A stretch of DNA of 64,000 nt from Ignavibacteriota bacterium (GCA_963801355.1 CAWDEM010000004.1:1593279-1657278); one strand, 5' to 3'. Positions 22,100 through 37,527 are shown, numbered from the stretch's first letter. Numbers and translations are program-made. Notes: generated from the letters alone by a model not told the origin.

Positions 22100-23263
22100 C
22101 TAGCGCCGGAAGAACTCTCCGACGATCATCTCATAGTCCCGGTCATCCATATCCTGGAGCAAGCCGGCATACACCTCGCCGCCGATCGGCGATGTACTGC
22201 CGTCGGGGTTGCGCCGGTTCATCCTGGCGGTCAATGCCGTCAGACGTTCGATTTCTTCCTGGAAAAACGCGACTGCCGACTTCCCGATTTTCAACGACGG
22301 GATCTCCACATCCAGATGGTCGGCGTCGAGGACGCACATCCAATGCTCGGCATAGGGCGTCGCCTGCAGATCCTCGGGGTGTTTCGAGAGCGCGTTGTTC
22401 ACCTGAATGACTTTTCCCGAGACCGGAGCGAGGAACGGTATGGAGTGTTTTCCCTGTCGCACGGTGAAGAGAGGGGCGCTGCGTTGCACCGTCATTCCCA
22501 GGTTCGGGAGTTCGATGGTGTCCACCGTGCCGATCAACCGCCGGGCGAAGTCGTCGATGCCGACGCGGACCGTGCCGTCTTCAAATGTCGACGCCCACGT
22601 ATGCCCGTCTGCGATGAAGACGCCCCCGGGGATGGCGAACTCATTGTTGCCGATCCCCTCCAGCGTCGCCACATGGGTAATGTGGACCTTCGGCTTCAGC
22701 TGTTTCGCAATCCGGTCCTGACGCTTCAGAAGGATCTTCTTCACGAATGCGAGGAGCTCATCTTCGGTGAACGGCTTCTGCACATAGTCCATGGCGCCGT
22801 GCTTCATGCATTCAACCGCCGTCTCGACCGTGGCGTAACCGGTGATGATGACAACATCAATGTCCGGACGTATGTGCTTCACCGATTTCGTGACCTCCAC
22901 ACCGTCCATGGCCGGCATTTTGAGGTCGGTGAACACGAAGTCGTAGTGGTGGGACTGCAGGAGGCCGAGGGCCTCCTGGCCGGTCTGCACCGTGTCGATC
23001 GAGTAGCCGTCGAGCACCAGAATCTTCCGGAAGCTGTCGAGGATTACTTCTTCGTCGTCGACGCAGAGGATCCGGGCCTTCGGCTGGTCGACTTCCGCCC
23101 GTTTCAGGCTCTTTGCTTCGCGGGTGAAGTCCAGCGAGAGGCTGACGGAGAGTGCATTCTCGCGTTCCTTCCGCAGCTTGTTCTCCTGCATGCGTCGTGA
23201 CACCACGCGGATGAGGATGTCCGCTATGACGAAGACAATGACGGCGATAACAAACAGTAACAT
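22100..23263 (-). CDS. Membrane-anchored receiver domain fused to GcvH-like domain
   Basis: N-terminal TM; REC (VDDE, FTDLKMP, ITGY, QKPF); HTWA..VRVGIDDFA..APVSGKVIQVN..PY..W. Confidence 0.85.
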   Translation of the reverse strand: MLLFVIAVIVFVIADILIRVVSRRMQENKLRKERENALSVSLSLDFTREAKSLKRAEVDQPKARILCVDDEEVILDSFRKILVLDGYSIDTVQTGQEALGLLQSHHYDFVFTDLKMPAMDGVEVTKSVKHIRPDIDVVIITGYATVETAVECMKHGAMDYVQKPFTEDELLAFVKKILLKRQDRIAKQLKPKVHITHVATLEGIGNNEFAIPGGVFIADGHTWASTFEDGTVRVGIDDFARRLIGTVDTIELPNLGMTVQRSAPLFTVRQGKHSIPFLAPVSGKVIQVNNALSKHPEDLQATPYAEHWMCVLDADHLDVEIPSLKIGKSAVAFFQEEIERLTALTARMNRRNPDGSTSPIGGEVYAGLLQDMDDRDYEMIVGEFFRR

Positions 23264-23284
23264 GGGAGGCCTCTCCTTAGTTGA

Positions 23285-24094
23285 TCACGTCAATGGATCA
23301 GAGCCGCATGGTTGCAGGCGTGCGAGTTCGTACTCAACGTCCGTCGGGATGGCGCGATACAGCCATCCGGTAAAATAGGGGTCCTTCTCGATGATGGCCG
23401 GGAAGGATTTCAATTCGGCGTTCACGTCCACCACCCGGCCGGAAATCGGCGAGAGTACCGGATGGAGCAGCCCGTCGGACGTCTGGATCTGGGCGCACAC
23501 GGTTCCCTGGATGATTTCACCATCGGGGTGAACGGTTTCCACCGCGGTGGGCTGTTCAATGGTCCGCACGAAGAGGTGGGTGACCCCGACGAGCGCCGTA
23601 CCGTCGCCCTGCGGGCATACCCAGCTGGTGTAACCCAGCCGCCGGTACTTCGGCGGGCAGGGGACCACGAGTGTTCCGTCCTCCGTCGTGCCGGAGACCA
23701 TGCGTGTTTGCTGCTCACGGATCTGCCGGAAACGCAGAGCACGCTGGATCGCCGACTTTAGTTCATCGAAGGTGAAAGGTTTCGGAATGTAGTCTACCGC
23801 TCCGACAGTAAGAGCCTGCACGGCGTTCTCGACCGTGGAAAACCCGGTGGCCATGATGACGGGTGTTTCCGGCGCCTTCTTCAGGGCAAGTTTCAGAAAC
23901 GAGAATCCATCCATCCCGGGCATCATGACGTCGCAGAGGATGAGGCCGAAGGACTGCCGGTCAAGCAGAGGAACGGCGGATTCCGCGTCAAGGGAGGTGA
24001 CAACACGGTATCCTTCCGATGTACAGATTTTCGTCACCGCGTCAAGAATGACTTGTTCATCGTCGATGACCAGGATGTCTGTGTGTGGCTTCAT
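23285..24094 (-). CDS. Receiver domain fused to GcvH-like domain lacking the lipoyl lysine
   Basis: REC (IDDE, LCDVMMP, ATGF, PKPF); SW..ALVGVT..SPISGRVVDVN..DPYFTGWL. Confidence 0.85.
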   Translation of the reverse strand: MKPHTDILVIDDEQVILDAVTKICTSEGYRVVTSLDAESAVPLLDRQSFGLILCDVMMPGMDGFSFLKLALKKAPETPVIMATGFSTVENAVQALTVGAVDYIPKPFTFDELKSAIQRALRFRQIREQQTRMVSGTTEDGTLVVPCPPKYRRLGYTSWVCPQGDGTALVGVTHLFVRTIEQPTAVETVHPDGEIIQGTVCAQIQTSDGLLHPVLSPISGRVVDVNAELKSFPAIIEKDPYFTGWLYRAIPTDVEYELARLQPCGSDPLT

Positions 24095-24100
24095 GCCTGT

Positions 24101-25969
24101 CTACCGTGGCTGCTGGAGGGGAAGACGGATGTGGAATGTCGTTCCCTTCTTCGGTTCGCTCTCTACAGTGATGGTGCCGTTATGGTTGTCAATAATGCCC
24201 CAGATGACGGAAAGCCCCAGGCCGGTGCCTTTCTGTCCCTTCGTGGAAAAGAACGGCTCGAAAATTTTTGGAAGCTCCTCGCGTGATATGCCGCTTCCCG
24301 TGTCGGCCACGGTGATCTCGACATAGTCGCGCACTCCATCTCGCTCCACCGACTCCCACCTCTGCCAGTCGCACCCGAACCTGCTGCAGGCTTCCCATTT
24401 GCCCTGTCCCGCGACTTCTATCCAGAATGTGGCCGCGGCGCATTTCGGGCAGCGGACCTGCGTATCCATCAGCGAGACGCCGCACTCAGGACATTGCACC
24501 GTCATCTCCTGGTCGGGGGAGAGAGGGATGCTGGTCATGTGCTGGTGGCGGCCGTACAAGGGGTCTAGGTGGAGAATACCTTCTTCGTTCCCCGCACGCA
24601 CTTTCACCCTGATCGACGGCAGACCGTTGATTTTCACGGCCGGGTCGATCAGCGCGTGCCGCTTGCTGCACGCAGCCTTCTTTACGGATGCGGTTCCCTC
24701 CGGGGAGAGCTTGAGCAATGAAGAGCCAATGGTGATTGTGCCGCCCGCCTGCGGCATCGCATCGATCGCGTTCACGATGAGGTTGACGAAGACCTGCTGG
24801 ATCTGGTTGGCGTCGACGGTGACCGGCGGAAGCTGCGGGTCAATATTCTTGACCAGATCCACATGCCGGAGCGTCAGCTGGTTGCTGACGACTGTCGTGG
24901 CACGGTCTATGACATCGTTGATCTGTGCTTCGGTCTTCTTGGGCACCGACTGCCGGGCGAAATCGAGCAGGCTCTTGACGATCTCCCGGCTCCGGAGGGT
25001 TTCCCGTACGATGACCTTGAGGTCTTCCTGCAGCTCCGGCTGATCCTGTGTGCGCTTCAGCAGAAAACTGCTGTAGGTCAGCACGCCGGTCAGCGGGTTG
25101 TTGATCTCATGAGCGACCCCGGCGGCAAGCCGTCCAAGGGACGCGAGTTTGTCCGATTGGAAGAGTTGCATCCGGGCTTCGGACAGTTTGGCGGTCATGT
25201 TATTGAACGAGCGTCCGAGCCGGCCGAGTTCGTCATTGCCTTCCCGGCTGATGTGGTAGCTGAGGTTGCCATCGGCGACCTGCTGGGTCCCCTTGACCAG
25301 TTCGGCCACCGGCCGGGCGACCCATCGCTGCACGAAGAAGGCGATGATCAGGCTCAGTGCAACAAAAGCACCTGCTGCGAAGAGCACCATCTCCAGCACA
25401 CGGTCGCGGATCTGGCGATCGACCTCTTGCAGCGGCATGGTTACATCAAGGACACCGAGCACCTTCACGTGTGCGGGGTGGACGTGGCAGTCGGCAGAGG
25501 AACAGGAGGTCTCGTTGTATATGGGGTTGATGACCGCCAGGTACCGGTCCGTCTCTCCTACCGGCTGGAGCAGCCGGGTTCTCTGGTCGATGGTCAGGTG
25601 CTGCAGCGGAGGTGTGCTGGCATGACAGGCGCGACAATTAGCAACCTCCTTCGGAAGAATGGTGCCCACGTCGGTCCCTACGGAGGAGAACATGACCTTC
25701 CCCTCCTTGTTCAGCACCCGCACGTCGCCGATGCCGGACTGCTGGCCGATAGCGCTGATGGTTTCCTGGATACGGTCACGCTCGTTGCGGAGCATATCCA
25801 GCCTGGTGCTGTGCTTGACCGTCTCGGTCAGCTGGTTTGCGTGACGTTCCACCTCCGCGGACAAACTTGCGTTGAGAGCACGGATGTTGAAGAACGCAAT
25901 GATCCCGATGATCACGATTGCCGTGATCCCGACCACGAGGATGAGTCTGACACCAATCCGCCGGATCAT
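24101..25969 (-). CDS. HAMP sensor histidine kinase with periplasmic heme-binding motif and Cys-rich insertion in HATPase domain
   Basis: Two TMs, CRACH and CSSADCH, HAMP, AHEINNPL, NLIVNAIDA, DTGSGI, GTGLGL. Confidence 0.92.
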   Translation of the reverse strand: MIRRIGVRLILVVGITAIVIIGIIAFFNIRALNASLSAEVERHANQLTETVKHSTRLDMLRNERDRIQETISAIGQQSGIGDVRVLNKEGKVMFSSVGTDVGTILPKEVANCRACHASTPPLQHLTIDQRTRLLQPVGETDRYLAVINPIYNETSCSSADCHVHPAHVKVLGVLDVTMPLQEVDRQIRDRVLEMVLFAAGAFVALSLIIAFFVQRWVARPVAELVKGTQQVADGNLSYHISREGNDELGRLGRSFNNMTAKLSEARMQLFQSDKLASLGRLAAGVAHEINNPLTGVLTYSSFLLKRTQDQPELQEDLKVIVRETLRSREIVKSLLDFARQSVPKKTEAQINDVIDRATTVVSNQLTLRHVDLVKNIDPQLPPVTVDANQIQQVFVNLIVNAIDAMPQAGGTITIGSSLLKLSPEGTASVKKAACSKRHALIDPAVKINGLPSIRVKVRAGNEEGILHLDPLYGRHQHMTSIPLSPDQEMTVQCPECGVSLMDTQVRCPKCAAATFWIEVAGQGKWEACSRFGCDWQRWESVERDGVRDYVEITVADTGSGISREELPKIFEPFFSTKGQKGTGLGLSVIWGIIDNHNGTITVESEPKKGTTFHIRLPLQQPR

Positions 25970-25985
25970 TGCGCAGGAGACCGTT

Positions 25986-27167
25986 CTATTTGTTGCCGAC
26001 CGCACGTACGGAGCTGATCATCGTGCCCGGCCGTGCCGCCGGATAGCTCTTGTCGTCGTGACATCCCGCACAGGATGGCGCTGCAGCAAAATTCATCTCC
26101 GCGTGACAGGACTCACAGTCCAGCCCGCTGTGCGATGCATCGAGCCGCAACCCTGTGATTTGATGCTTGAACGATGCCGGCGTCCACCCTTTGTGACACG
26201 TCGTGCACTTGCGGTCAACTTTCGTGAAGCGTTTCTTGTCGCCGTGGCACTTCTGACAGGAGAGGTCGCGGTGGAAGCGATTCAGGGCCCAGCCGGAACT
26301 CCGTGCATGGTCGAATGCCGTCATCGGCTTTGCGACGTGGCACGCCTCGCATTTGTCCGAACCATGGCAGGTGAAGCAGGGCTCATGCAGCTGCTCCATG
26401 GAAAGCTGTGTCTTCACTTCCCGCACCTTGGTGTCATCGGCTCTGCTCCTGTTCACGTCGTGGCACCGTACGCATCCTTCCTGCTGGTGGCAGTCGATGC
26501 ATTCCAGCCCGAACCGTGTCGCGTGGTCGTCGTGGAAAAACGTCACAAACGAACCGTCCTCATTGCGAGTTGCATAATCCACTTTTGTGGGGAGTGGAAC
26601 TCTGGGATGGGATTTGCCGGCCTCTGTGCGAGCACGCGTCATCTCCGCTTCAGTCTGCTCCTGGGATTTCTTTGTGTGACATCCGCTGCAGTCCGTTGTG
26701 TGTGTCCACTGCCGGTGACAATCTATGCACTGCCGGTGATATGCACCCTTGAGATCAGGCATGCTGAGATCGGCACGGGCCCTCGACTTCGGGTGGCACT
26801 CACGGCAGGAGAGGATCCCCTGGGAGGTGCTGTTGTAGTGGTGGCAGCCATAGCATCCTCCCGACATCTCCGACATCTCGGCGTGCGCCTTGTGCGCGAA
26901 GACCACCGGACCATACTGGCCCGCCATGTCTCCCATGCGCAAGACTTCCGGGCCTGTCTCCCCCGTGGCATGGCCGGGGAGCATGCGCACACGCGGACAG
27001 TTCACGAGGCACGGGTCTGTCTTTGTTGGTTTCGGGCAGGCATGGCACGTCTGGCATGGCACATCCGGACGCTTCGGCGGTGCATGTTTTTCCCATTTGG
27101 ATCCCTGGCCGAACGCGGACAGGGAAAGCAACGCGAGCGCTGTGAGACAATGAATCCAGAGTTTCAT
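25986..27167 (-). CDS. Periplasmic multiheme cytochrome c (13 CxxCH; cytochrome c3/HmcA-like)
   Basis: Signal peptide, 13 CxxCH motifs, c3-like VVFAHKAH and AYHRQC. Confidence 0.92.
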   Translation of the reverse strand: MKLWIHCLTALALLSLSAFGQGSKWEKHAPPKRPDVPCQTCHACPKPTKTDPCLVNCPRVRMLPGHATGETGPEVLRMGDMAGQYGPVVFAHKAHAEMSEMSGGCYGCHHYNSTSQGILSCRECHPKSRARADLSMPDLKGAYHRQCIDCHRQWTHTTDCSGCHTKKSQEQTEAEMTRARTEAGKSHPRVPLPTKVDYATRNEDGSFVTFFHDDHATRFGLECIDCHQQEGCVRCHDVNRSRADDTKVREVKTQLSMEQLHEPCFTCHGSDKCEACHVAKPMTAFDHARSSGWALNRFHRDLSCQKCHGDKKRFTKVDRKCTTCHKGWTPASFKHQITGLRLDASHSGLDCESCHAEMNFAAAPSCAGCHDDKSYPAARPGTMISSVRAVGNK

Positions 27168-28408
27168 GACTTTTCCGATCGAATGGCATATTTCGCTTGG
27201 ATAGCCGGTCGGTCTTCCGGCACGCTGATTACCGGGAATATCATGACGTATGCCCTGTACATAAGGGTCAGGAGAGAGATGAAGCCGACGGTCACCGAAA
27301 TTTCCCCTATCGACGGGAGGTAGGGATGCAGGGCGTAGGGGGGTTGATACGCGACAATGAAGTTGTTGATCCGGTTCAACGCCACGCCGAACACGACGAG
27401 TGCCGCCGCGGTGAACGTCAACGCAGGTGACCTGAGAACGGAAGGAGAGAGGAACATGCGCAACGGGATGACGACGCCTACCACCACTTCGATCGTCCAC
27501 ATCACACTTGCCGTATTCAGATCCGCGAGATAGACGAATGTCTCACGGATAAACATATCGCCGAGCTTGAACGCGAGGTACACGCCCAGGATCGGTGCGA
27601 CCATGCCGCCGAGTTTGCCCAGAATTTCGGTTTCCGGCTTGAGCTTGAATGACCGTGCGGCCAGGGTGGACTCGAAGATGACCATCGGGAATCCCACCGC
27701 TATGGCGGAAAGAAGAAAAAGCAGCGGGAGGATCGGAGTGAACCAGAGCGGGTGCATTTTCGCGCCGGAGATGACCATCAGCGTGCCGAGTGAGGATTGG
27801 TGGAGCGTCGAGAGAACGACACCAGCGATAATGAAGACGAACATGGTCGTGTTGAGTCCGCGGTCGAGCACGCGGAGCAACCGGTCCACGGAACGATTGA
27901 GCCCCCTGAGGATGCCCGGGAGGTTCACCTTGCCGATAAACCGTTCGGTCACGAGAGGGATGAATTCGATATAGAGCACCGTCATGTAGATCATCACGCA
28001 GATACCGACCTCGAACAGGGCCGAGTTGCCGTTCCACATGATGAGGGGGTGCCAGATAAAATACCAGCGCCCGATGTCCACACAGACACCGATGGCGACG
28101 AATGTGTAACCCAGCATGGCTGTCAGCAGCGCGGGGCGGATGATGGCGTGGTACTCTTCCCGGTGCATGACGTGGCCGAGGGCGGCGGTCGTGAAGCCGC
28201 CTGCCGCGAGGGCAACACCGGCGCCGACGTCGACGGCGATCCAGAGTCCCCAGGGATACTGATCATTCAAGTTGGTCACGGCGCCGAGGCCGAAAAAGAA
28301 TCGGCCGGCCAGGAACGCGATGCCGTTGACCGCCAGGAGGATCAAGACGATGACTCCCGGTGTGAGGAACTTGGCTTTGATCGGGGTTGGTGTCATGTGC
28401 GCTTCCAT
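27164..28408 (-). CDS. NrfD/HybB/HmcC-family integral membrane quinone-interacting subunit
   Basis: TNLNDQYPWGLWI, DIGR, SALFEVGIC, HQSSLGTL, HPLWF. Confidence 0.92.
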   Translation of the reverse strand: MEAHMTPTPIKAKFLTPGVIVLILLAVNGIAFLAGRFFFGLGAVTNLNDQYPWGLWIAVDVGAGVALAAGGFTTAALGHVMHREEYHAIIRPALLTAMLGYTFVAIGVCVDIGRWYFIWHPLIMWNGNSALFEVGICVMIYMTVLYIEFIPLVTERFIGKVNLPGILRGLNRSVDRLLRVLDRGLNTTMFVFIIAGVVLSTLHQSSLGTLMVISGAKMHPLWFTPILPLLFLLSAIAVGFPMVIFESTLAARSFKLKPETEILGKLGGMVAPILGVYLAFKLGDMFIRETFVYLADLNTASVMWTIEVVVGVVIPLRMFLSPSVLRSPALTFTAAALVVFGVALNRINNFIVAYQPPYALHPYLPSIGEISVTVGFISLLTLMYRAYVMIFPVISVPEDRPAIQAKYAIRSEKS

Positions 28409-28410
28409 GC

Positions 28411-29301
28411 CTAGGCCTCCTCTTTCCGGGTTTTCGTCATCCACATGATTGCCCCGAGTATTGCATAGAGTGCGACGGGCGGGACAAAATACGCAAAGAT
28501 GCCATGCTGGATGGCTTCCGACACGCCGGGAGCCGGAGTGGTACCGAGTTTTGGGAACTTCAGATCTGCAAAGTCGCGTCCGGCGAGGTACACCCATCCT
28601 GTTCCGCCGGCTTCGTACTCGCCGTACACGTGATTGACGTACTTGTCTCCGTATGTGATTAACCGCTGCTTGGCGATCCGGATAATTTCATCGCGGGGCC
28701 CGAACGTCAGGGCCTCGACCGGGCACGCATCCACACATGCGGGGAGTTTGTTCTCACTTGTCCGGACAATGCAGAAGTCACACTTCCGGATTTCGGGCTG
28801 AATGGCTTTATCGTATTCAAATGAAGGGATCTGGAACGGGCAGGCTACCATACAGTACCGGCAGCCGATGCACATGTCCGTGTCCCAGATCACCGATCCG
28901 TTTTCCTGTTTCGAAAACGCGCCCACGATGCATGCAGAAACGCAGGCGGGGTGATCGCAGTGCATGCACTGGACTTTGACGAAGTACGGAAGATCGGCCT
29001 TTCTGGGATTGTCGTACTGATTGACGACGGTAAGGGCTCCCGAATCCGGACGCCGCATCTCCTTGAAGACCGACCTGTCGCCGTACATCTCGAGGGGTGG
29101 CGACGGCAGGTCATGAGCGGTGCGACAGGCGTATTCGCAACTTCTGCAGCCGATACACACCGTCGTATCCACGAGGACGCCATTCCGTTCCGGAGACAGA
29201 ACGTTCTTCGGGTTTGCCTTTGCAGTTGCATTGAGCCCGGCAACAGTTCCGCCGGCCAGGGCAGCAGTCTTCAAGAAGGCCCGTCGACTCGGTAATTTCA
29301 T
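28411..29301 (-). CDS. Tat-exported 4Fe-4S dicluster protein (HybA/HmcB-like)
   Basis: SRRAFLK; CIGCRSCEYAC, CMHCDHPACVSAC, CIGCRYCMVACP, KCDFC; C-terminal TM. Confidence 0.93.
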   Translation of the reverse strand: MKLPSRRAFLKTAALAGGTVAGLNATAKANPKNVLSPERNGVLVDTTVCIGCRSCEYACRTAHDLPSPPLEMYGDRSVFKEMRRPDSGALTVVNQYDNPRKADLPYFVKVQCMHCDHPACVSACIVGAFSKQENGSVIWDTDMCIGCRYCMVACPFQIPSFEYDKAIQPEIRKCDFCIVRTSENKLPACVDACPVEALTFGPRDEIIRIAKQRLITYGDKYVNHVYGEYEAGGTGWVYLAGRDFADLKFPKLGTTPAPGVSEAIQHGIFAYFVPPVALYAILGAIMWMTKTRKEEA

Positions 29302-29344
29302 AGGTGGTCCTTGCAGGATTGAACAGCACTGACGCGCTCAACTC

Positions 29345-29359
29345 TCAAAACTTGAGCCA
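29345..29359 (-). promoter_or_regulatory. Possible sigma54-like promoter for the redox operon (non-canonical -12)
   Basis: TGGCTC-AAGTT-TTGA 44 nt upstream of start; -12 is GA instead of GC. Confidence 0.4.
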
Positions 29360-29587
29360 CAAACCAGTGAGCGAATGTGTTCAAATATCCAAGAAATCGG
29401 CGGAAAAACGGGCAAACCCGCAGCTCCCCTTTCCTAAAATGAGGAAAAAGTGAACAGCTATTCCCAGTTGTGGGAAAATTGGGCCATTTTCGCCTTCTCT
29501 TCTGCGGCATTCCCATGGCACGATTTGTGACTTCGCAAAGCTGAGTGATTTCAGCCGTTTGCAGTCTCAGACGATTGGAATGAGTGA

Positions 29588-30952
29588 ATGAAAAAAGAAG
29601 AACTCGGCATTCTGGTCGTGGACGACGAGTTCATTGTCCGCGAGTCGCTCACCAAGTGGTTCCGTGAAGATGGGTTCCGGGTCGATGCTGCTCCTGACGG
29701 GTTCACTGCGCTGAAGAAGCTCCAGACTGAACCGTGGAACCTGGTTCTCACTGATATCAGAATGCCCGGCATGGATGGACTGGAACTCCTGCATCGCGTC
29801 AAGCGGATAAGCCCCCAGAGCGTGGTCATCATTGTGACGGCGTTCGCCACGGTCGAAACCGCGGTGCGCGCATTGAAGGAAGGTGCGTACGACTACATCA
29901 CGAAACCGATAGATCCGGATTACCTCAACCATATTGTCATCAATGCGCTGGAGCAACAGCAGCTGGTGCTGGAGAACCAGCGACTGCGCAACGCCGTGAG
30001 CGAGCTGACGGCCGACTCCGCGATCATCGGTGAGTGCGCCGAGATGCGCCGCGCGATCGAGCTCGTGGAAACGGTCGCTCCGGCGGAGACCACGGTGCTG
30101 ATTACCGGGGAGAATGGAACGGGCAAGGAGTTCGTGGCGCGGGCCATTCACCAGGCGAGTGCGCGGCGCTTTTCTCCGCTGATAACCGTCAGCTGCGGTT
30201 CTCTCGGCGAGCTTCCTATGGTGGACGAACTGTTCGGCCACGAAGCAGGGGCCTATCCGGGCGCACAGCAAATGCAAAAAGGGAAGATCGAACTGGCCGA
30301 TGGCGGTTCTGTATTCCTGGACGACATCGGGAGGCTCGATCTGAAAGCCCAGGCAGAGCTCTTGCGCTCGCTGGAGATGAAGCACATTATCCGCCTCGGT
30401 GGTGTGGATCCGATCAATGTCAGCGTCAGACTGCTCTGCGCCAGCCAGGAAGATCTCGAGAAGGCGGTGCACGAGGGACGGTTCAGAGAAGATCTCTACT
30501 ATCGCCTGACGGTCTTTGAGATCATGCTCCCGCCGCTGCGGGCGAGGCGGGGTGATGTGGCAGCACTTGCTCACTTCTTTCTGGGCAAGTATGCGCGCGC
30601 TATGAACCGTAAGATGCAGGGGTTTTCACCGGAGGCAATGCTCGCTCTCAAGGCATATGCATGGCCCGGCAACGTGCGAGAACTCCAGAACGTCATCGAG
30701 CGTGCCCTGGTCGTGGCACGGGGTCCGATGATAGAACGGGAACACCTCATCCTGCACACAGATACCGCATCACCCACGACGGGAAAACGGCTCGAAGATA
30801 TGGAACGAGCGCATATTGCAGTCATCCTGCGTGAAACCGGATGGAATATCAGCCGCAGCGCCTCAATCCTGGACATCGACCGTGTCACACTCTACCATAA
30901 GATCGAGAGATACGGATTGAAACGGCAGGCGCAGCCGGCACCTCTCCGTTGA
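29588..30952 (+). CDS. NtrC-family response regulator (REC-AAA+-HTH) with degenerate GAFTGA
   Basis: REC, GENGTGKE, ELFGHEAGAYPGA, FLDDIG, FREDLYYRL, WPGNVRELQN, Fis HTH. Confidence 0.92.
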   Translation: MKKEELGILVVDDEFIVRESLTKWFREDGFRVDAAPDGFTALKKLQTEPWNLVLTDIRMPGMDGLELLHRVKRISPQSVVIIVTAFATVETAVRALKEGAYDYITKPIDPDYLNHIVINALEQQQLVLENQRLRNAVSELTADSAIIGECAEMRRAIELVETVAPAETTVLITGENGTGKEFVARAIHQASARRFSPLITVSCGSLGELPMVDELFGHEAGAYPGAQQMQKGKIELADGGSVFLDDIGRLDLKAQAELLRSLEMKHIIRLGGVDPINVSVRLLCASQEDLEKAVHEGRFREDLYYRLTVFEIMLPPLRARRGDVAALAHFFLGKYARAMNRKMQGFSPEAMLALKAYAWPGNVRELQNVIERALVVARGPMIEREHLILHTDTASPTTGKRLEDMERAHIAVILRETGWNISRSASILDIDRVTLYHKIERYGLKRQAQPAPLR

Positions 30953-31016: not shown

Positions 31017-32414
31017 ATGGCACAGTCACAGTACGACATCGTTGTGCTCGGGGGGGGGCCCGGGGGCTACACCGCAGCAATACGCGCCGCCCGGCTCGGC
31101 CTCCATACTGCTATCATCGAACGCGAACGCCTCGGTGGTGTGTGTCTCAACTGGGGCTGCATCCCTACCAAAGCCCTTCTTCGGAATGCGGAAGTGTACC
31201 GCCTGATCCGCTCAGCGGCGGATTGGGGGATCTCCGCAGAGAATGTCCGCCTCGACTTCCCGCAGGTGATCAAGCGCAGCCGCGGGATCGCGGACCGCGT
31301 CTCCAAAGGCGTCGAGTACTTGATGAAGAAGAACAAAATCGACTCCATCCGCGGATCGGGGCGCCTTCTTTCGGGCGAAACGGTTGAAGTGCGGGCGGAA
31401 GGGAAAGCGACGACGTCTGTCAAGGCAAGGCACATCATCGTCGCAACCGGCGCCCGACCCCGGTCCCTCCCGGGCGTTACTATCGACCGCAAGCGGATCA
31501 TTACCAGTACGGAGGCCATGGCGCTTCCGGAGCAGCCTGCTTCCATGGTGATTATCGGAGCGGGGGCGATCGGCATCGAGTTCGCCTCGTTCTACAACGA
31601 CATCGGGACAAAGGTCACCGTCGTGGAAATGATGCCGGCCATTCTGCCCATCGAGGACAAGGAACTGACCAAAGCGCTGGAAGCGAGTTTACGTAAGCAG
31701 GGGATTCAGTTCCTTACCGAGACACGCGTGGAAAGCGCGACCACCGGGCCCGACAAAGTCACCGTGACGGTACAAAATGCTGCGGGAACGCAAGAGCTGA
31801 CTGCAGATGTTGCACTGGTGGCCGTCGGCGTTCAGGGGAATGTGGAAAGCATCGGGCTCGAATCGCTCGGTGTGAAAGTGGAACGGGGGCATATCGTCGT
31901 GGACAAGAACTACCGGAGCTCCGTTCCCGGTGTGTTCGCCGTTGGTGATGTGATCGGCCCTCCCTGGCTGGCGCACGTTGCTTCCGCAGAAGGAGTGTTT
32001 TGCGTGGAGAGCATTGCCGGCCGCAACCCCGAGCCGCTGGACTACTCCACCATACCCGGTTGTACCTATTGCCGACCCCAGCTTGCAAGTGTGGGATTCA
32101 CCGAAGAGATGGCGGTGGCTGAGGGGTATGAAGTCAAGGTGGGCCGATGCCCCTTCCGGCCCATGGGGAAGGCGGTTGCGATGGGCGAGACCGAAGGGAT
32201 GGTCAAGCTTGTGTTTGACGCAAAGTACGGCGAGCTGCTCGGCGCACACATCCTCGGCTCCGAGGCGACAGAAATGATCGCTGAGCTCGTGCTCGCCAAG
32301 AAGCTGGAAGCAACGGGGCAGGACATTTTCCGGACGATCCACGCTCACCCGACACTGAGTGAGGCAGTGATGGAGGCGGCGGCTGCAGCATACGGCGAGG
32401 CAATAAACATTTGA
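31017..32414 (+). CDS. lpdA: Dihydrolipoyl dehydrogenase (E3)
   Basis: GGGPGGY, GGVCLNWGCIPTK, HAHPTLSE. Confidence 0.97.
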   Translation: MAQSQYDIVVLGGGPGGYTAAIRAARLGLHTAIIERERLGGVCLNWGCIPTKALLRNAEVYRLIRSAADWGISAENVRLDFPQVIKRSRGIADRVSKGVEYLMKKNKIDSIRGSGRLLSGETVEVRAEGKATTSVKARHIIVATGARPRSLPGVTIDRKRIITSTEAMALPEQPASMVIIGAGAIGIEFASFYNDIGTKVTVVEMMPAILPIEDKELTKALEASLRKQGIQFLTETRVESATTGPDKVTVTVQNAAGTQELTADVALVAVGVQGNVESIGLESLGVKVERGHIVVDKNYRSSVPGVFAVGDVIGPPWLAHVASAEGVFCVESIAGRNPEPLDYSTIPGCTYCRPQLASVGFTEEMAVAEGYEVKVGRCPFRPMGKAVAMGETEGMVKLVFDAKYGELLGAHILGSEATEMIAELVLAKKLEATGQDIFRTIHAHPTLSEAVMEAAAAAYGEAINI

Positions 32415-33139
32415 CGGCACAGTCGGAAGCGCACGGCATCGAGGTGGTACGATTGGGTCGGTCGGCGTACCGTGCATGCCTGGCGCTCCAGCGTCATCTG
32501 CAGGAGCGCCGGATCGCCGGCACCATCGGCGATGTCCTTCTGCTCACCGAGCATGATCCGGTGCTCACGCTGGGGACCACCGCAAATGCCGACCATCTCC
32601 TCTCTTCTCCGGAGGTGCTCTCCCGTGAAGGACTGGATGTTGTAGAAGTTGAACGGGGGGGCGATATCACCTTCCATGGACCGGGCCAGCTGGTCGGGTA
32701 TCCCGTTTTCGATTTGACGCAGCACACACCGGATCTTCACCGATACCTCCGCCAGCTCGAAGATCTGGTAATCGGGACCCTTGCGGCATTCGGCGTCCGC
32801 GCGTCTCGTGTCGAGGGATACACCGGCGTCTGGGTGGGAGGCGAGAAGATTTGTGCGATCGGCATACACGTGCGCCGCTGGGTCACGATGCACGGCTTCG
32901 CACTGAATATCAACACCGATCTGTCGTACTTCCGCCATATCATTCCCTGCGGGATTTTTGAACGGGGTGTAACGTCGCTGGCAGAAATTCTGGGACGGCG
33001 TGTCCCGTTGACCGAAGTGGAGGACGCGCTGCTGGGTGTGTGTGCGCGTGTATTTCTGAGAACCGTCCACGAGACTACATGTAAGGAACTTGGGATAGAC
33101 AGTGACTCTCTCCAACGACAGGATGCTGTGTGCCTATAA
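32411..33139 (+). CDS. lipB: Lipoyl(octanoyl) transferase
   Basis: EHDPVLTLG, RGGDITFHGPGQLVGYP, KICAIG, HGFALN, IPCG. Confidence 0.95.
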   Translation: MTAQSEAHGIEVVRLGRSAYRACLALQRHLQERRIAGTIGDVLLLTEHDPVLTLGTTANADHLLSSPEVLSREGLDVVEVERGGDITFHGPGQLVGYPVFDLTQHTPDLHRYLRQLEDLVIGTLAAFGVRASRVEGYTGVWVGGEKICAIGIHVRRWVTMHGFALNINTDLSYFRHIIPCGIFERGVTSLAEILGRRVPLTEVEDALLGVCARVFLRTVHETTCKELGIDSDSLQRQDAVCL

Positions 33140-35111
33140 GACGGTGCTCACCGCCCGTTTGATCGATACAAAGATCCTCGTCCTGCTGAAGCAGGGCAAA
33201 GCCTTCTTTCATATCGGCTGTTCCGGGCACGAAGTGGCACAGGTGGCCGCTGCCGCGGCAATGCGTCCCGGGCACGACTGGGCCTACCCGTATTACCGCG
33301 ATCTTGCGTTTGCCCTCCAGTACGGGTACACCATTGACGATGCGATACGCGAAGCCATGCACCGTCGCGGCGGTCCCGGCAGCAACGGCTTCAGCATGAT
33401 GGGCCATTATGGCAAGAGGGATCTTCGTATTGTTGCGCAATCGAGTCCGACAGGGACGCAATATCTGCAGGCGGTGGGAACCGCCATGGGAGCTGTTCTT
33501 GAAAAGAACGATGAAGTTGTCTATGTCTCATCCGGGGAGGGAGCAACCAGCGAAGGGGAGTTTCACGAAGCGGTGAATTGGGCGGCGCGTGACAGGCTGC
33601 CGGTGGTTTTCCTTATCGAAAACAACAGGTACGCGATCTCCGTACCGGTGACGGATCAGGTTGCAGGGGGGTCGGTGGCAAAGATGGTGCGGGGGTACGA
33701 AGGACTTGCCGCCCGCTGCGTGGATGGGTGCGATTACCCGGTCATGTTTCAGGCTGCGGAAGAGGCGGTCAACCGGGCCCGGAGGGGAGAAGGCCCGACA
33801 CTCATTGAAGCCCAGGTGGTGCGGCTCCTTGCGCATTCGTCATCGGATGACCAGAGGAAATACCGCGATGCGGGGGATCTGGAAGAGGATCTGCGTCGGG
33901 ACCCGCTGCCGCGTTTTGAGCGATTGTTGTTGGAGAGTGGAGCCGTTACTTCAAACGACATCGCGCGGCTGAAGGCGGAATTGCAGAGCGAGATAGACCG
34001 CGTTGCGAAAGACGTGGAAACCCTCCCTGTTCCCGATCCGGCGGAGGTTGATCGTTTCGTGTACTCTCCGGGACGCATCGTGGCCTCTGACGGGTTCGTT
34101 GAGCCCGAGCATACAGGTCCGAAAATCGTCCTCGTGGATGCCGTAAACCACGCGCTTGCCGAAGAGCTGGAGCGCAACCCCGGAATGCTCGTGTACGGCG
34201 AAGACGTCGGCCGCGGAAAAGGCGGCGTCTTTACCGCCACAAAAGGCCTCACGGAGAAGTTCGGCGAGGAGCGGGTGTTCAACTCGCCGCTGGCTGAGGC
34301 GAGCATCGTCGGGACGGCGTTCGGACTCGCGGTGCGCGGCACGTTCAAGCCGGTTGTGGAGATCCAGTTCGGCGACTACATCTGGCCGGCCTTCATGCAG
34401 ATCCGTGACGAGATCGCCATGTTGCGTTATCGCTCGTACAACACCTGGACATGTCCGATGGTGATCCGGGTGGCAGTGGGAGGATACATCCACGGCGGCC
34501 TCTATCATAGTCAGTCCATTGACGGCTTCTTCACGCACATTCCCGGTATCCGTGTGGTGTTCCCATCGACGGCGGCCGACGCAAAGGGACTCCTGAAGAC
34601 TGCCTGCCGGGAAGACGACCCGGTGCTCTTCCTGGAGCACAAAGGGTTGTACCGTCAGGGCTTTGCCTCTTCGCCGGAACCTTCCTCCGAGTATCTCCTG
34701 CCATTCGGCATTGCCAAGATCCGGAAACCGGGGGACGATATCACCGTCATCACCTGGGGCATGCTCGTGCAGCGTTCGCTTGATGCCGCGCGCGCGGTTG
34801 AGGAGCGGCTCGGCCTCAGTGTGGAGGTGATTGATCTCCGGACGTTGAATCCACTGGACAAGGACACGGTCTTGACTTCCGTGCGCAAGACCGGAAAAGT
34901 GCTGATCGTCCACGAAGATACGTTGACCGGTGGGTTCGGCGGCGAGATAGCGGCAATCATTGCGGAGGAAGCATTCGAACGGCTCGATGCGCCCGTGGTC
35001 CGGGTCGCCGCGAAGGATTCTCCCGTACCCTATGCGCCGCCACTGGAGTACGCCATGCTTCCCCAGGAAGCAGATGTCATGCGGGCGCTGGAAAAGCTCG
35101 CGCGGTACTGA
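33102..35111 (+). CDS. 2-oxoacid (probably branched-chain) dehydrogenase E1, fused alpha-beta
   Basis: TPP motif GEGATSEG..ENN, HSSSDD; beta part GEDV, PLAEASI, EIQF, HSQS. Confidence 0.9.
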   Translation: MTLSNDRMLCAYKTVLTARLIDTKILVLLKQGKAFFHIGCSGHEVAQVAAAAAMRPGHDWAYPYYRDLAFALQYGYTIDDAIREAMHRRGGPGSNGFSMMGHYGKRDLRIVAQSSPTGTQYLQAVGTAMGAVLEKNDEVVYVSSGEGATSEGEFHEAVNWAARDRLPVVFLIENNRYAISVPVTDQVAGGSVAKMVRGYEGLAARCVDGCDYPVMFQAAEEAVNRARRGEGPTLIEAQVVRLLAHSSSDDQRKYRDAGDLEEDLRRDPLPRFERLLLESGAVTSNDIARLKAELQSEIDRVAKDVETLPVPDPAEVDRFVYSPGRIVASDGFVEPEHTGPKIVLVDAVNHALAEELERNPGMLVYGEDVGRGKGGVFTATKGLTEKFGEERVFNSPLAEASIVGTAFGLAVRGTFKPVVEIQFGDYIWPAFMQIRDEIAMLRYRSYNTWTCPMVIRVAVGGYIHGGLYHSQSIDGFFTHIPGIRVVFPSTAADAKGLLKTACREDDPVLFLEHKGLYRQGFASSPEPSSEYLLPFGIAKIRKPGDDITVITWGMLVQRSLDAARAVEERLGLSVEVIDLRTLNPLDKDTVLTSVRKTGKVLIVHEDTLTGGFGGEIAAIIAEEAFERLDAPVVRVAAKDSPVPYAPPLEYAMLPQEADVMRALEKLARY

Positions 35112-35145
35112 GAGTACCTATTTCTCAACTTCATGGAGTCCGATG

Positions 35146-36633
35146 ATGGCACGGATCGAAGTGGTCATGCCACAGATGGGAGAGAGCATTACCGAGGGGA
35201 CGATTGTCAAGTGGCACAAGAAGGTGGGCGATCAGGTGAAACTGGATGAGACGCTCCTGGAAATCAGCACAGACAAAGTTGATTCGGAGATTCCATCGCC
35301 GGGCGCCGGTGTGCTTGCGGAGATCGTGGTCGGCGAGCAACAGACCGTGCCCGTTCGCACCGTGATCGCCTATCTCGAGAGCGAGGCCACCCAGGGTCAG
35401 CCGGTCCCGGTCGGGGCCCCACCGGCTCCTGCGAAGACTCTTTCGGTCCCGGGGGAAACCGCGCAGCCGGTCGTCCCCGGAGAAACCGCACCGCCGGTTG
35501 TCCCGGGGGGAACCGCACCGCCGGTCGTCCCGGGGGGAACCGCACCGCCGGTCGTCCCGAAGATTGTGCATCCGGAAGGGAGATTCTATTCCCCGCTGGT
35601 GTTAAGTATTGCGCGGACCGAGGGGCTTCCGCTCGAGGAACTCGGACGCGTGCCCGGATCCGGGGAGGGAGGGCGCGTCTCCAAGAGAGATATTCTGGCG
35701 TATCTTGCACAGCGGCGGCAGACTCCGGAAGTGAAATTGCAGGAACGCCCTGCGCCCGGGAGCGAGGCGGAGACACCGCAGGCGCCTCCGGTTGCGCCGC
35801 CTGATGCGTCCCCGGGTGCGCCGCCTGATGCGTCCCCGGGTGCGCCGCCTGATGCGTCCCCGGGTGCGACGCCTGATGCGTCCCCGGGTGCGTTGCCAGA
35901 CGCGTCCCGGGGTGCGCCGCCGGATGGAACGCAGGCCTCCGATGTTGAGCGAATCCCGATGAGTGTCCTTGTTCAGAAGATGGCGCAGCACATGGTGAAC
36001 AGTGTGCGGACCTCGCCTCACGTTGCCGCGGTGCATGAAGTGGATATGACCGCTGTTGTGCGCCACCGGGATATGCACGCGGCGGAGTTCGAGCGCCGCG
36101 AAGGGTTCAAGCTGACATTCACACCCTACATTGTCCATGCGGTGTCGCAGGCGCTGAAAAAGTATCCGTTGATGAACAGCTCAATCGATGGCACCACCAT
36201 TATCCGGAAGAAGTCCATCAATATCGGTCTCGCGGTGGCGGCCGAGAACGGTCTGATTGTTCCCGTGATTAAGAATACCGGAGACCAGGACATCACCGGC
36301 ATTGCCCGCTCCGTGCATGATCTTGTCGAACGGACACGAATCCGGAAGCTCAAGCCCGACGAGGTCCAGGGAGGCACATTTACGATCTCCAATTACGGAG
36401 TCTTCGGCACTCTCATTGGCACGCCGATTATCAACCAGCCGCAGATTGCCATACTTGGAACCGGAATGATTCAGAAGCGGGTGGTCGCGATCGATGACGG
36501 GATCGCGATCAGGTCGATGGCGTACTTCACGATGTCGTTTGATCACCGGGTGGTGGATGGCAACCTGGGCGGTATGTTTCTGGATCAGGTGGTGAAGAAC
36601 CTGCAGGGCATCGATCCTGCGATGACGATCTAG
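35146..36633 (+). CDS. Dihydrolipoamide acyltransferase (E2)
   Basis: Lipoyl domain STDKV, E3-binding GSGEGGRV, catalytic DHRVVDG. Confidence 0.94.
   Translation: MARIEVVMPQMGESITEGTIVKWHKKVGDQVKLDETLLEISTDKVDSEIPSPGAGVLAEIVVGEQQTVPVRTVIAYLESEATQGQPVPVGAPPAPAKTLSVPGETAQPVVPGETAPPVVPGGTAPPVVPGGTAPPVVPKIVHPEGRFYSPLVLSIARTEGLPLEELGRVPGSGEGGRVSKRDILAYLAQRRQTPEVKLQERPAPGSEAETPQAPPVAPPDASPGAPPDASPGAPPDASPGATPDASPGALPDASRGAPPDGTQASDVERIPMSVLVQKMAQHMVNSVRTSPHVAAVHEVDMTAVVRHRDMHAAEFERREGFKLTFTPYIVHAVSQALKKYPLMNSSIDGTTIIRKKSINIGLAVAAENGLIVPVIKNTGDQDITGIARSVHDLVERTRIRKLKPDEVQGGTFTISNYGVFGTLIGTPIINQPQIAILGTGMIQKRVVAIDDGIAIRSMAYFTMSFDHRVVDGNLGGMFLDQVVKNLQGIDPAMTI
35449..35559 (+). repeat. In-frame 27-nt tandem repeat x4 (PG[E/G]TA[P/Q]PVV) in E2 linker
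   Basis: CCGGGGGGAACCGCACCGCCGGTCGTC-like units. Confidence 0.9.
35794..35925 (+). repeat. In-frame 24-nt tandem repeat x5.5 (APPDASPG) in E2 linker
   Basis: GCGCCGCCTGATGCGTCCCCGGGT-like units. Confidence 0.9.
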
Positions 36634-36657
36634 AGTATCAGCGGTGCAAATGAGGAG

Positions 36658-37527
36658 GTGTGGAGCGTGGCATACGCAGGAGATGGAGTGCGGCGGCCGG
36701 AATGGTTGAAGGTGAAGATTCCCTCCGGACAGAATTACCTCCGGCTGAAGGAATTGATGGACCGGCACCGGTTGCATACGGTGTGCGAGGAAGCGCGCTG
36801 TCCGAACATGGGAGAATGCTGGAGCGCGGGCACGGCAACGTTCATGATTCTGGGTGACGTGTGTACGCGGTCCTGCGGTTTTTGTGCGGTGCGGACCGGG
36901 CTCCCGCAAACGCTCGATCTCGAAGAACCGGCACGGGTCGCGGAGGCGGTCCGCATCATGGAAGTGCGTCATGCGGTGATCACTTCGGTGAATCGGGACG
37001 AGCTTGAGGACGGCGGTGCCTCGGTCTTTGCGGCGACCATCCATGCGGCTCGGGAAGCACGTCCGGGCATGACGGTCGAGGTTCTGATTCCGGACTTCCA
37101 GGGGGATGCCGCTGCCCTGCAGATCGTCGTCGATGCGAAGCCGGATATTCTCAATCACAATACGGAGACCATCCCCCGTCTCTATCCCTCTGTGCGTCCG
37201 CAGGCAAAGTACGCGCGAAGTCTGGCGCTCCTGGATCGGGCGAAGGGAGCAGGGATGGTCACGAAGAGCGGTTTGATGCTGGGTCTGGGGGAGACAAATG
37301 ACGAGGTGCTGGAGGTATTATCCGATTTGCGGGCTGTTTCATGCGATATTGTAACGCTGGGGCAGTATTTGCAGCCCACGAAGGAGCACCTCCCGGTAGC
37401 GCGATATGTGACGCCCGGGGAGTTCGCCCTGTTGCGGGAACGGGGAATGATGATGGGTTTCCGGCACATTGAATCAGGCCCGTTGGTGAGGAGTTCCTAC
37501 CATGCCGGTATGCACATCGGTGTCTGA
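36658..37527 (+). CDS. lipA: Lipoyl synthase
   Basis: [26 protein letters not shown]; start uncertain. Confidence 0.96.

Follow-up and report, generated by a model that had tools for sequence, protein, structure and literature searches.

Gene content of the locus

The 64,000-nucleotide window analysed here, the whole of a stretch from an Ignavibacteriota bacterium (GCA_963801355.1, CAWDEM010000004.1:1593279-1657278), carries at 22100-29301 six minus-strand genes nearly without spacers, and a seventh gene transcribed divergently from them (Table 1). The six encode an iron-sulphur (FeS) protein, an NrfD-family membrane subunit, a multiheme cytochrome c, a sensor histidine kinase, and two response regulators—RG1 and RG2—in which a receiver (REC) domain is joined to a barrel with the fold of GcvH, the H-protein of the glycine cleavage system. 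The seventh encodes an NtrC-type sigma54 activator. Start and stop codons overlap by 4 bases in both the FeS/NrfD and the NrfD/cytochrome gene pairs.

Table 1. Features of the REC-GcvH locus, in window coordinates.
Feature	Position	Strand	Basis or remarks
FeS protein	28411-29301	-	Tat-exported, tail-anchored, periplasmic, four [4Fe-4S] motifs, HybA/HmcB-like
NrfD-family membrane subunit, HybB/HmcC-like	27164-28408	-	PF03916
Periplasmic multiheme cytochrome c, 13 CxxCH	25986-27167	-	Motif count, signal peptide
Sensor histidine kinase	24101-26005	-	Start GTG 26005 or ATG 25969
RG2, soluble response regulator: receiver and GcvH-fold barrel	23285-24094	-	Pfam, AlphaFold2 (AF2)
RG1, membrane-anchored response regulator: transmembrane helix, receiver, GcvH-fold barrel, C-terminal helical extension	22100-23263	-	
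NtrC-type sigma54 activator, divergent	29588-30952	+	REC, AAA+, HTH_8
Divergent intergenic region	29302-29587		Weak sigma54-like motif

An earlier reading of this DNA, made from the sequence alone, had described the six-gene architecture with its divergent NtrC-type gene, and all of the genes and domains that it named were confirmed. It had also remarked that the cluster has no catalytic subunit. This is borne out by the genome, in which all matches to NiFe-hydrogenase large subunits and to molybdopterin oxidoreductases lie on contig C8 and none on contig C4, which contains the window. The canonical gcvH of the genome is likewise on C8, as are all of its GCV_T matches; the further remark that the window contains neither gcvT nor gcvP therefore holds for gcvT, gcvP not having been searched for.

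The membrane core

The FeS protein bears an SRRAFLK twin-arginine motif and has a hydrophobic tail at its C-terminus; its 16 Cys residues make up four [4Fe-4S] motifs, and it is matched by Pfam Fer4_11 and related models. It is identical to Escherichia coli HybA at 102 of 288 aligned residues and scores below the NCBIfam equivalog cut-offs for both HmcB (317.3 bits against 420) and HybA (240.6 against 263). The membrane subunit matches PF03916 with 67 bits (cut-off 25.8) and also falls below the equivalog cut-offs of its relatives, namely HybB (341.5 against 450), HmcC (266.5 against 550), and QrcD (110.3 against 570). The cytochrome, which possesses a signal peptide and exactly 13 CxxCH motifs, is matched by the Pfam families Cytochrom_CIII, C7, and c3_2; its scores are 59.2 bits for HmcA (cut-off 400) and 25.5 for 9HemeCytC (cut-off 640), and its orthologues contain 12-13 CxxCH motifs in all 15 loci compared. 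The cytochrome/FeS/NrfD trio is classed as a new subfamily of a known kind (Nhc/Hmc/Hyb).

Seven functional residues of HybB (R89, Y99, D109, S129, E148, H184, and R329) are all identical in the NrfD subunit of the window, and are retained in 20-21 of 21 NrfD family members, including those of types II and III. In the sections available of a review of NrfD proteins (PMC8076601), D109 and S129 are assigned to the quinone site and R329 to the middle of the membrane, with R89, Y99, E148, and H184 lining the proton path from the N side. Because the NrfD subunit keeps all seven, the membrane core has the appearance of a functional Hyb/Nhc-type module coupled to quinone, in which the cytochrome would replace the hydrogenase.

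Receivers fused to a GcvH-fold barrel

RG1 and RG2 both match Pfam Response_reg (5.6e-31 and 4.7e-29, respectively) and Pfam GCV_H (4.2e-19 and 69.1 bits for RG1, 2.2e-14 and 53.8 bits for RG2, against a cut-off of 22.2). The receiver residues D69, D70, D113, T141, and K163 of RG1 and D11, D12, D55, T83, and K105 of RG2 are invariant in their families. The AF2 models have a predicted local distance difference test (pLDDT) value of 82 for RG1 and 90 for RG2. That of RG1 consists of a helix (2-42), the receiver (64-188), the barrel (209-314), and two further helices (317-351 and 374-384), these last belonging to a C-terminal extension that terminates in FF. By Foldseek, the RG2 barrel superposes on the E. 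coli H-protein (3a8i_E) with a TMt of 0.88, a root-mean-square deviation of 1.4 Å, and 24% identity, and the N-terminal half of the model superposes on receivers. No PDB chain with both a receiver and an H-protein barrel was found by Foldseek with the RG2 model, and a search of solved structures with RG2 returned receiver domains only among the 60 matches listed. Residues 195-387 of RG1, when searched in the protein atlas, retrieved no clusters but generic 'glycine cleavage H' ones, whose values of 0.81-0.85 fall short of the lead level of 0.9.

The H-protein barrel is familiar as a carrier of lipoate, and the sequence-only reading had introduced the fold on those terms. The canonical GcvH of this genome served to fix the position of the lipoyl lysine by alignment. 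No Lys at all occurs in the hairpin of RG2 family members (alignments of 16 and 37 sequences), in which C146 and C200 are nearly invariant and H211 invariant. The family formed by RG1 and the receiver-less A-type proteins described below has Lys in the canonical column in only 3 of 23 sequences, RG1 of the window among them, and same-family relatives of this RG1 have T and Y there; the position that follows the lipoyl column is K or R in 14 of 14 RG1 family sequences. RG1 also scores 73.9 bits against the GcvH subfamily NF002270, for which the cut-off is 117. Since the lysine is not conserved, the GcvH-like domains of RG1 and RG2 are judged, on alignment, not to be lipoyl carriers, despite their H-protein fold.

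The sensor kinase and the NtrC-type regulator

According to Pfam, the kinase is laid out as a transmembrane segment, a periplasmic part, a second transmembrane segment, HAMP, HisKA, and HATPase_c. The periplasmic CxxCH noted in the sequence-only reading was recovered (CRACH) together with an additional Cx4CH (CSSADCH), and both sit between the two hydrophobic segments. Across 17 aligned homologues, Cx4CH is invariant and CxxCH is conserved in at least 90%. Kinases of type I (those from clusters with REC-fused GcvH-like proteins) have both motifs within the first 260 residues in 18 of 18 cases, and those of type II (from REC-less clusters) in 62 of 64. These motifs and their conservation suggest that the periplasmic part carries covalent c-type heme. 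The HATPase_c domain is interrupted at kinase residues ~430-545 by a Zn-ribbon-like CPxC...CPxC insert of ~115 residues, whose CPxC pairs are invariant in the same 17 homologues; the insert is restricted to type I, with no CPxC in any of the 64 type II kinases. The genome of the window encodes just two kinases with the CxxCH plus Cx4CH sensor, one for each of its two clusters.

The divergent NtrC-type protein consists of a receiver (REC, 1e-31), a Sigma54_activat AAA+ domain (7e-58), and HTH_8 (3.7e-11). The receiver of this protein has 43% identity with the RG1 receiver and 40% with the RG2 receiver. No second kinase adjoins its gene in the window, and a homologous kinase/NtrC pair flanks the cluster in the relatives L107, L108, L112, and L113. 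As there is a single kinase nearby and the receivers are alike, one kinase may serve all three, with the NtrC-type activator as its probable third substrate.

A weak sigma54-like motif (TGGCTC-N5-TTGA), seen by eye, lies in the divergent spacer about 40 nucleotides before the FeS gene starts. With one mismatch allowed, TGGYAY-N5-TTGC occurs 10 times in the window, where shuffles lead one to expect 11.6, and none of these matches falls in the spacer. Elsewhere, TGGYAY-N4/5-TT(G/T) motifs recur upstream of the FeS gene in L005-L008, L010, L013, L022, and L023; these resemble -24/-12 elements, although their spacing is often one base under that of canonical sigma54 promoters.

Conservation of the REC-fused cluster

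A search with RG2 retrieved at least 120 proteins with receiver and GCV_H domains, and the names that some of these carry go no further than 'response regulator' or 'glycine cleavage system protein H'. Loci were then collected from contigs of one genome per species, 80 being kept and 25 analysed in which the match extends past the receiver. In all 16 of these with at least 6 kb upstream, the genes for FeS, NrfD, and kinase adjoin RG2, and the 13-heme cytochrome is also present in 12 of the 16. The remaining four of the 16 (L004, L014, L015, and L018) are arranged differently, as RG1, small cytochrome, FeS, NrfD, kinase, RG2; three of them bear the label Gammaproteobacteria, and the small cytochrome was confirmed by Pfam in L014 and L004. 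As an independent sample, RG1-type places were sought among 201 genomes of the phylum, and all 15 found, which are in the window's class, contained the six genes in order.

The carriers of the REC-fused cluster are labelled Ignavibacteria/Bacteroidota, Elusimicrobia, Gammaproteobacteria, and Gemmatimonas, with the closest relative seen (L024) being labelled Ignavibacteriota. The linkage of REC-GcvH genes to FeS, NrfD, and kinase genes, proposed from a single locus in the sequence-only reading, is thus conserved in 16/16 RG2 and 15/15 RG1 loci, rearranged orders included.

A wider module without receivers

In L001, L006, and L007, the six-gene cluster is preceded on its upstream side by FeS-NrfD pairs whose flanking GcvH-like genes lack a receiver. 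These REC-less proteins are of two types. The A-type possesses a short N-terminus, a transmembrane helix, the barrel, and the C-terminal helical extension known from RG1, likewise ending in FF; the B-type begins with a C-x12-C-x5-C-x2-C motif, which is followed by the barrel and a DGG-containing extension.

The window's own genome contains a second, Qrc-like cluster of this kind at C8 2013570-2023743 (L086 3570-13743). It encodes a 324-residue unknown protein, a c7/c3-like cytochrome, a molybdopterin-like protein with weak Pfam scores, an FeS protein, an NrfD protein, and a GcvH-like protein with a transmembrane/Cys-motif arrangement. On its divergent side are an NtrC-type gene, an M54 peptidase gene, and the gene of a kinase with the same sensor as that of the window.

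Within the window's class, 19 of 20 REC-less places are beside FeS-NrfD, and in 16 of the 20 a kinase gene and the gene of a ~450-residue REC protein come next. In a second phylum—that to which the genome of L030 belongs—44 of 121 genomes gave a match at E <= 1e-25, and 20 regions were taken for neighbourhood counts. FeS-NrfD is present in 13 of these and a sigma54 regulator adjoins in 19, whilst 6 have a longer GcvH-like gene accompanied only by a kinase and a sigma54 regulator. The remaining region (L145 8153-11112) has four tandem GcvH-like genes alone, its 20 kb having yielded neither FeS nor NrfD, kinase, or sigma54 genes.

When species genomes were searched with the A-type alignment, this distribution widened to about ten phyla (80 loci kept, 79 of them new). 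Their labels include Syntrophales, Syntrophorhabdus, Deferrimicrobia, Calditrichia (with a metagenome-assembled genome of Caldithrix abyssi), Gemmatimonadota, Acidobacteriota, Eisenbacteria, Krumholzibacteriia, Planctomycetota, Anaeromyxobacteraceae, Chitinophagales, and Ignavibacteria. Among the 79 loci, FeS and NrfD occur together in 68, at least two GcvH-like genes in 72, a kinase in 56 (43 of these with CxxCH), and a sigma54 regulator in 56; several of the loci that lack module genes are short contigs. A profile search of 1.84 billion representatives returned 664 clusters at E <= 1e-30.

In 5 of the 79 loci, a REC-fused cluster stands in tandem with a REC-less one. Type I and type II clusters were also observed head to tail in one locus at L108 5517-19470 and in L170, L184, L194, L175, and L204, an arrangement that suggests duplication and divergence of the entire module.

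Because the REC-less module is so widespread, the cluster of the window is read as a derived variant, in which receivers would have been placed before both GcvH-like proteins and the large cytochrome added. The sequence-only reading had treated the REC-GcvH pair as a free-standing pathway; the pair is better regarded as a derived form of the wider REC-less GcvH/FeS-NrfD/kinase/sigma54 module.

Fusions of the barrel to other domains

The barrel is also found in other proteins. Two of these (P0215 and P0233) have a signal peptide and a stretch of about 330 extracytoplasmic residues that no Pfam family matches, and continue through one transmembrane helix into the barrel, a predicted layout that is one-pass and receptor-like. 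At L228 4233-12001 (G238 C1 90233-98000), the genes of a heme-motif kinase and an NtrC protein precede those of four regulators with one receiver each, namely REC-GcvH, REC-STAS, REC-GcvH, and REC-GcvH-Fer4; the 12 kb region contains no FeS-NrfD.

Further fusions are to Fe-S domains. Fer2_4-Fer4-GcvH-like proteins are encoded at L124 10-9356 and L229 4809-6092, the former between NuoE/NuoF-like genes and a molybdopterin oxidoreductase gene in what resembles a cytoplasmic formate dehydrogenase cluster linked to nicotinamide adenine dinucleotide. One protein joins Fer4, MvhD, a molybdopterin-binding domain, and the barrel, and another, of 1391 residues, contains three barrels, a flavin adenine dinucleotide oxidase, and an HdrD-like Fer4-CCG-CCG part. 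Taken with membrane anchoring, the fusions suggest that the barrel works as an adaptor or in signalling, at membrane complexes and Fe-S redox proteins, and its activity would be set by a receiver, an extracytoplasmic domain, or contact in the membrane.

Neighbouring dehydrogenase genes

Directly downstream of the NtrC-type gene, at 31017-37527 on the plus strand, are lpd, lipB, a fused E1 alpha-beta gene, the E2 gene, and lipA. These form a complete 2-oxoacid dehydrogenase plus lipoylation operon, which was absent from the sequence-only reading. The gene for the E2 acyltransferase contains two in-frame tandem repeat arrays, one at 35446-35559 (a 27-nucleotide unit x4.2) and the other at 35782-35926 (a 24-nucleotide unit x5.8), both of which encode Pro/Ala-rich linker repeats. 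The lpd/lipB neighbourhood recurs only in the same-family relative L107, as lipB-lpd-NtrC, and no lpd or lipB match was obtained in any of the 25 RG2 loci.

Proposed mechanism

The explanation that best accounts for these observations, and to which an even chance is given, is that of a conserved redox-sensing and electron-transfer operon whose kinase signals via GcvH-fold adaptor domains. The FeS protein and the quinone-reactive NrfD subunit would constitute a module of the HybAB/Nhc type, extended into the periplasm by the 13-heme cytochrome. The redox state of the kinase hemes would track the quinone pool as well as the periplasmic chain, and would thereby set kinase activity, leading to phosphorylation of the receivers of soluble RG2 and membrane-anchored RG1 and, probably, of the divergent sigma54 activator. 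The GcvH-fold barrel, being without the lipoyl lysine, is envisaged as acting on the cytoplasmic side of the complex or else on an Fe-S redox partner. Phosphorylation of RG1 and RG2 would then gate the action of the barrel directly, and not through transcription alone. The sequence-only reading had likewise proposed a kinase that reads the redox state of the multiheme conduit and signals post-translationally through GcvH-like domains, and its interpretation as a whole has partial support.

It is the REC-less barrels, membrane-anchored or Cys-rich and nearly always beside FeS-NrfD and a kinase, that lead the barrel to be read as a signalling or adaptor domain. A broader form of the proposal, put forward tentatively and with somewhat less than even odds, is that the barrel and its C-terminal extension form an unrecognised signalling/adaptor domain which, with FeS-NrfD and a di-heme-c kinase, makes up a widespread redox-sensing apparatus. 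RG1 and RG2 would then be the first response regulators with such an output, acting by phosphorylation on the quinone-linked complex or on cytoplasmic Fe-S partners. A complex prediction for NrfD with RG1 195-387, run without controls, scored 0.01 against a mark of 0.32 and is taken as evidence neither way.

Several observations weigh against this proposal. The distant locus L030 has the kinase and a REC-GcvH gene without the FeS-NrfD pair, and GcvH-like genes stand apart from FeS-NrfD also in L087, in 7/20 regions of the second phylum, in 8/79 A-type loci (several of them short contigs), and in L228; the complex can therefore not be the sole partner of these proteins. The NtrC gene is not a constant neighbour, being found by tblastn within 10 kb in only L011, L021, and L030 of the 25 RG2 loci and present in 4/15 RG1 loci, and the search for a canonical sigma54 promoter ahead of the window's FeS gene gave none. 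In addition, 11/11 deltaproteobacterial A-type proteins have an invariant Lys one position off the lipoyl site, and a modification may exist in this subgroup. Finally, whilst the architecture, fold, conserved residues, synteny, and distribution are matters of observation, the attachment of heme, the phosphotransfer, and the target and effect of the GcvH fold are inferred.

Alternative explanations

The least improbable of the alternatives, itself unlikely, regards the cluster as an ordinary Nhc/Hmc-like menaquinol:periplasmic-acceptor oxidoreductase. On this view, the GcvH-like proteins would either act as chaperones, in assembly or Tat proofreading, or be structural subunits on the cytoplasmic side, with the two-component system only tuning expression. 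Such operons often encode dedicated chaperones (hybE in the hyb operon of E. coli being one), and the FeS protein, with its Tat motif, has cofactors that need loading before export; the functional residues of NrfD are kept, and the REC-less GcvH-like genes directly adjoin FeS-NrfD. A receiver on a chaperone is, however, hard to explain, all the more so as both paralogues have one in 15/15 loci and one of the two is anchored in the membrane. Nor would chaperones be expected where the kinase and the sigma54 regulator occur without FeS-NrfD, as they do in 6/20 regions of the second phylum and in L228, or in the one-pass receptor-like fusions.

A second alternative, also improbable and placed after the first, differs from the preferred redox-sensing and electron-transfer operon only in the purpose of the complex, and is compatible with it. 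FeS-NrfD, with or without the cytochrome, would be the input wire of a sensor, equilibrating the kinase hemes with the menaquinone pool, and the whole cluster would be a sensor of quinone-pool or periplasmic redox state. Type II clusters composed of FeS, NrfD, and a di-heme kinase, without a cytochrome or catalytic subunit, are what such a sensor might look like, and the two-heme-motif sensor is a constant companion of these genes (62/64). Thirteen hemes and the fully kept proton-channel residues of HybB, on the other hand, exceed the needs of a wire, and Qrc-like versions with a molybdopterin-like subunit occur.

More doubtful is the suggestion that the GcvH-like proteins carry a thiol, a disulphide, or another covalent redox group for cytoplasmic Hdr-like or Fe-S enzymes, in the way that LbpA serves sHdr and DsrC serves DsrK. 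The fusions of the barrel to HdrD-like CCG, MvhD, HdrC-like Fer4, and NuoG-N-like Fe-S domains are in keeping with this, as are C146, C200, and H211 of RG2, the C-x12-C-x5-C-x2-C motif of the B-type, and a Lys at -6 that is invariant in 11/11 A-type proteins. Yet no CCG or Hdr gene is found in the window's cluster or in the type II clusters seen, and the hairpin residue of RG1 may be either K or R. In addition, NrfD, as portrayed in the sections available of PMC8076601, is without a cofactor that could hand electrons on to a carrier in the cytoplasm.

The last alternative, which is very improbable and was rejected, makes the GcvH-like domains true lipoyl carriers that link the kinase to the lpd-lipB-E1-E2-lipA genes: these genes do follow the NtrC gene here and in L107, and RG1 of the window does have Lys at the canonical position, but this lysine is unconserved (3/23 sequences, with T and Y in same-family relatives) and missing from RG2, the dehydrogenase-gene neighbourhood is rare, and E2 has a lipoyl domain of its own.

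Significance

Beyond a few model organisms, little is known of the means by which anaerobes perceive redox poise in the periplasm and the quinone pool and adapt their many cytochrome and NrfD complexes to it. The module described here joins a recognisable electron-transfer core and a heme kinase to a fold hitherto known only as a lipoyl carrier. The association itself is real and conserved; its mechanism is inferred only, and there is a real chance that the barrel represents a new class of signalling domain. Should the GcvH fold indeed be a signalling output, it would constitute a new class of response-regulator output, give a function to several hundred clusters annotated as 'glycine cleavage system H' (the 664 noted above), and offer a testable route for the post-translational regulation of respiration at the membrane.

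Relation to known systems

The GcvH-fold family and its receiver fusion are apparently undescribed. The sequence-only reading knew of no characterised receiver-GcvH pathway, and the literature searched yielded no description of receiver-GcvH proteins either (about 1.7 million PMC articles were outside the reach of this search). Likewise, no paper in the literature searched, supplements excluded, mentions GcvH or 'glycine cleavage system H' together with NrfD, and nothing useful was obtained there on the Melioribacter clusters or on rrf1/DVU0530. The same reading had presented the whole as an undescribed system: this remains appropriate for the linkage of receiver and GcvH fold, but not for the cytochrome/FeS/NrfD trio, which is of a known, Nhc/Hmc/Hyb-like kind.

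The closest known relatives of that trio are the NhcABCD/HmcABC(DEF) cytochrome complexes found in sulfate reducers and HybA-HybB of E. coli hydrogenase 2, with which it shares a periplasmic multiheme cytochrome or other redox partner, a Tat-dependent FeS protein with four clusters, and a cofactor-less quinone-reactive NrfD protein. It differs from them in missing every equivalog cut-off, in having 13 hemes as opposed to 9 or 16, in being without a hydrogenase and without HmcDEF, and in being locked to a di-heme kinase and GcvH-like proteins. A link between a response-regulator gene and an Hmc-type complex has reportedly been seen before, with the Rrf1/Rrf2 genes downstream of the hmc operon of Desulfovibrio vulgaris; Rrf1 is mentioned here, as a lead only, as a possible REC-GcvH protein. 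NhcC is listed in Bacteroidetes and Chlorobi in the sections available of the NrfD review (PMC8076601), in whose text the words 'glycine' and 'kinase' each occur 0 times.

A comparable genetic layout exists in Geobacter sulfurreducens, in which the CbcBA operon is transcribed divergently from the gene of the REC-sigma54 activator BccR (10.1101/2021.04.15.440034, in the part available). This operon, which is induced by low redox potential, also includes hypothetical proteins and another response regulator (10.1101/2021.04.15.440034). Like the locus of the window, it sets a quinone-oxidoreductase cytochrome operon opposite a sigma54 regulator; unlike it, CbcB is a di-heme b cytochrome and not an NrfD/FeS module, and no heme kinase or GcvH-like protein is named in the part of that source available.

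With the glycine cleavage H-protein, RG1 and RG2 share the barrel fold and not the lipoyl lysine, which they lack as a conserved residue. To this fold, the family adds a C-terminal helical extension, a membrane anchor, or a Cys motif, and it has no linkage to gcvT. The LbpA protein of sHdr systems is a lipoate-binding GcvH-like protein, and some members of the present family are fused to Hdr-like domains.

As for the sensor, the chemoreceptors GSU0582 and GSU0935 of Geobacter and DcrA of Desulfovibrio are transmembrane signalling proteins with a periplasmic sensor domain to which heme c is covalently bound. Compared with these, the protein of the window is distinguished by being a histidine kinase, by its two heme motifs, and by the Zn-ribbon-like insert of type I.

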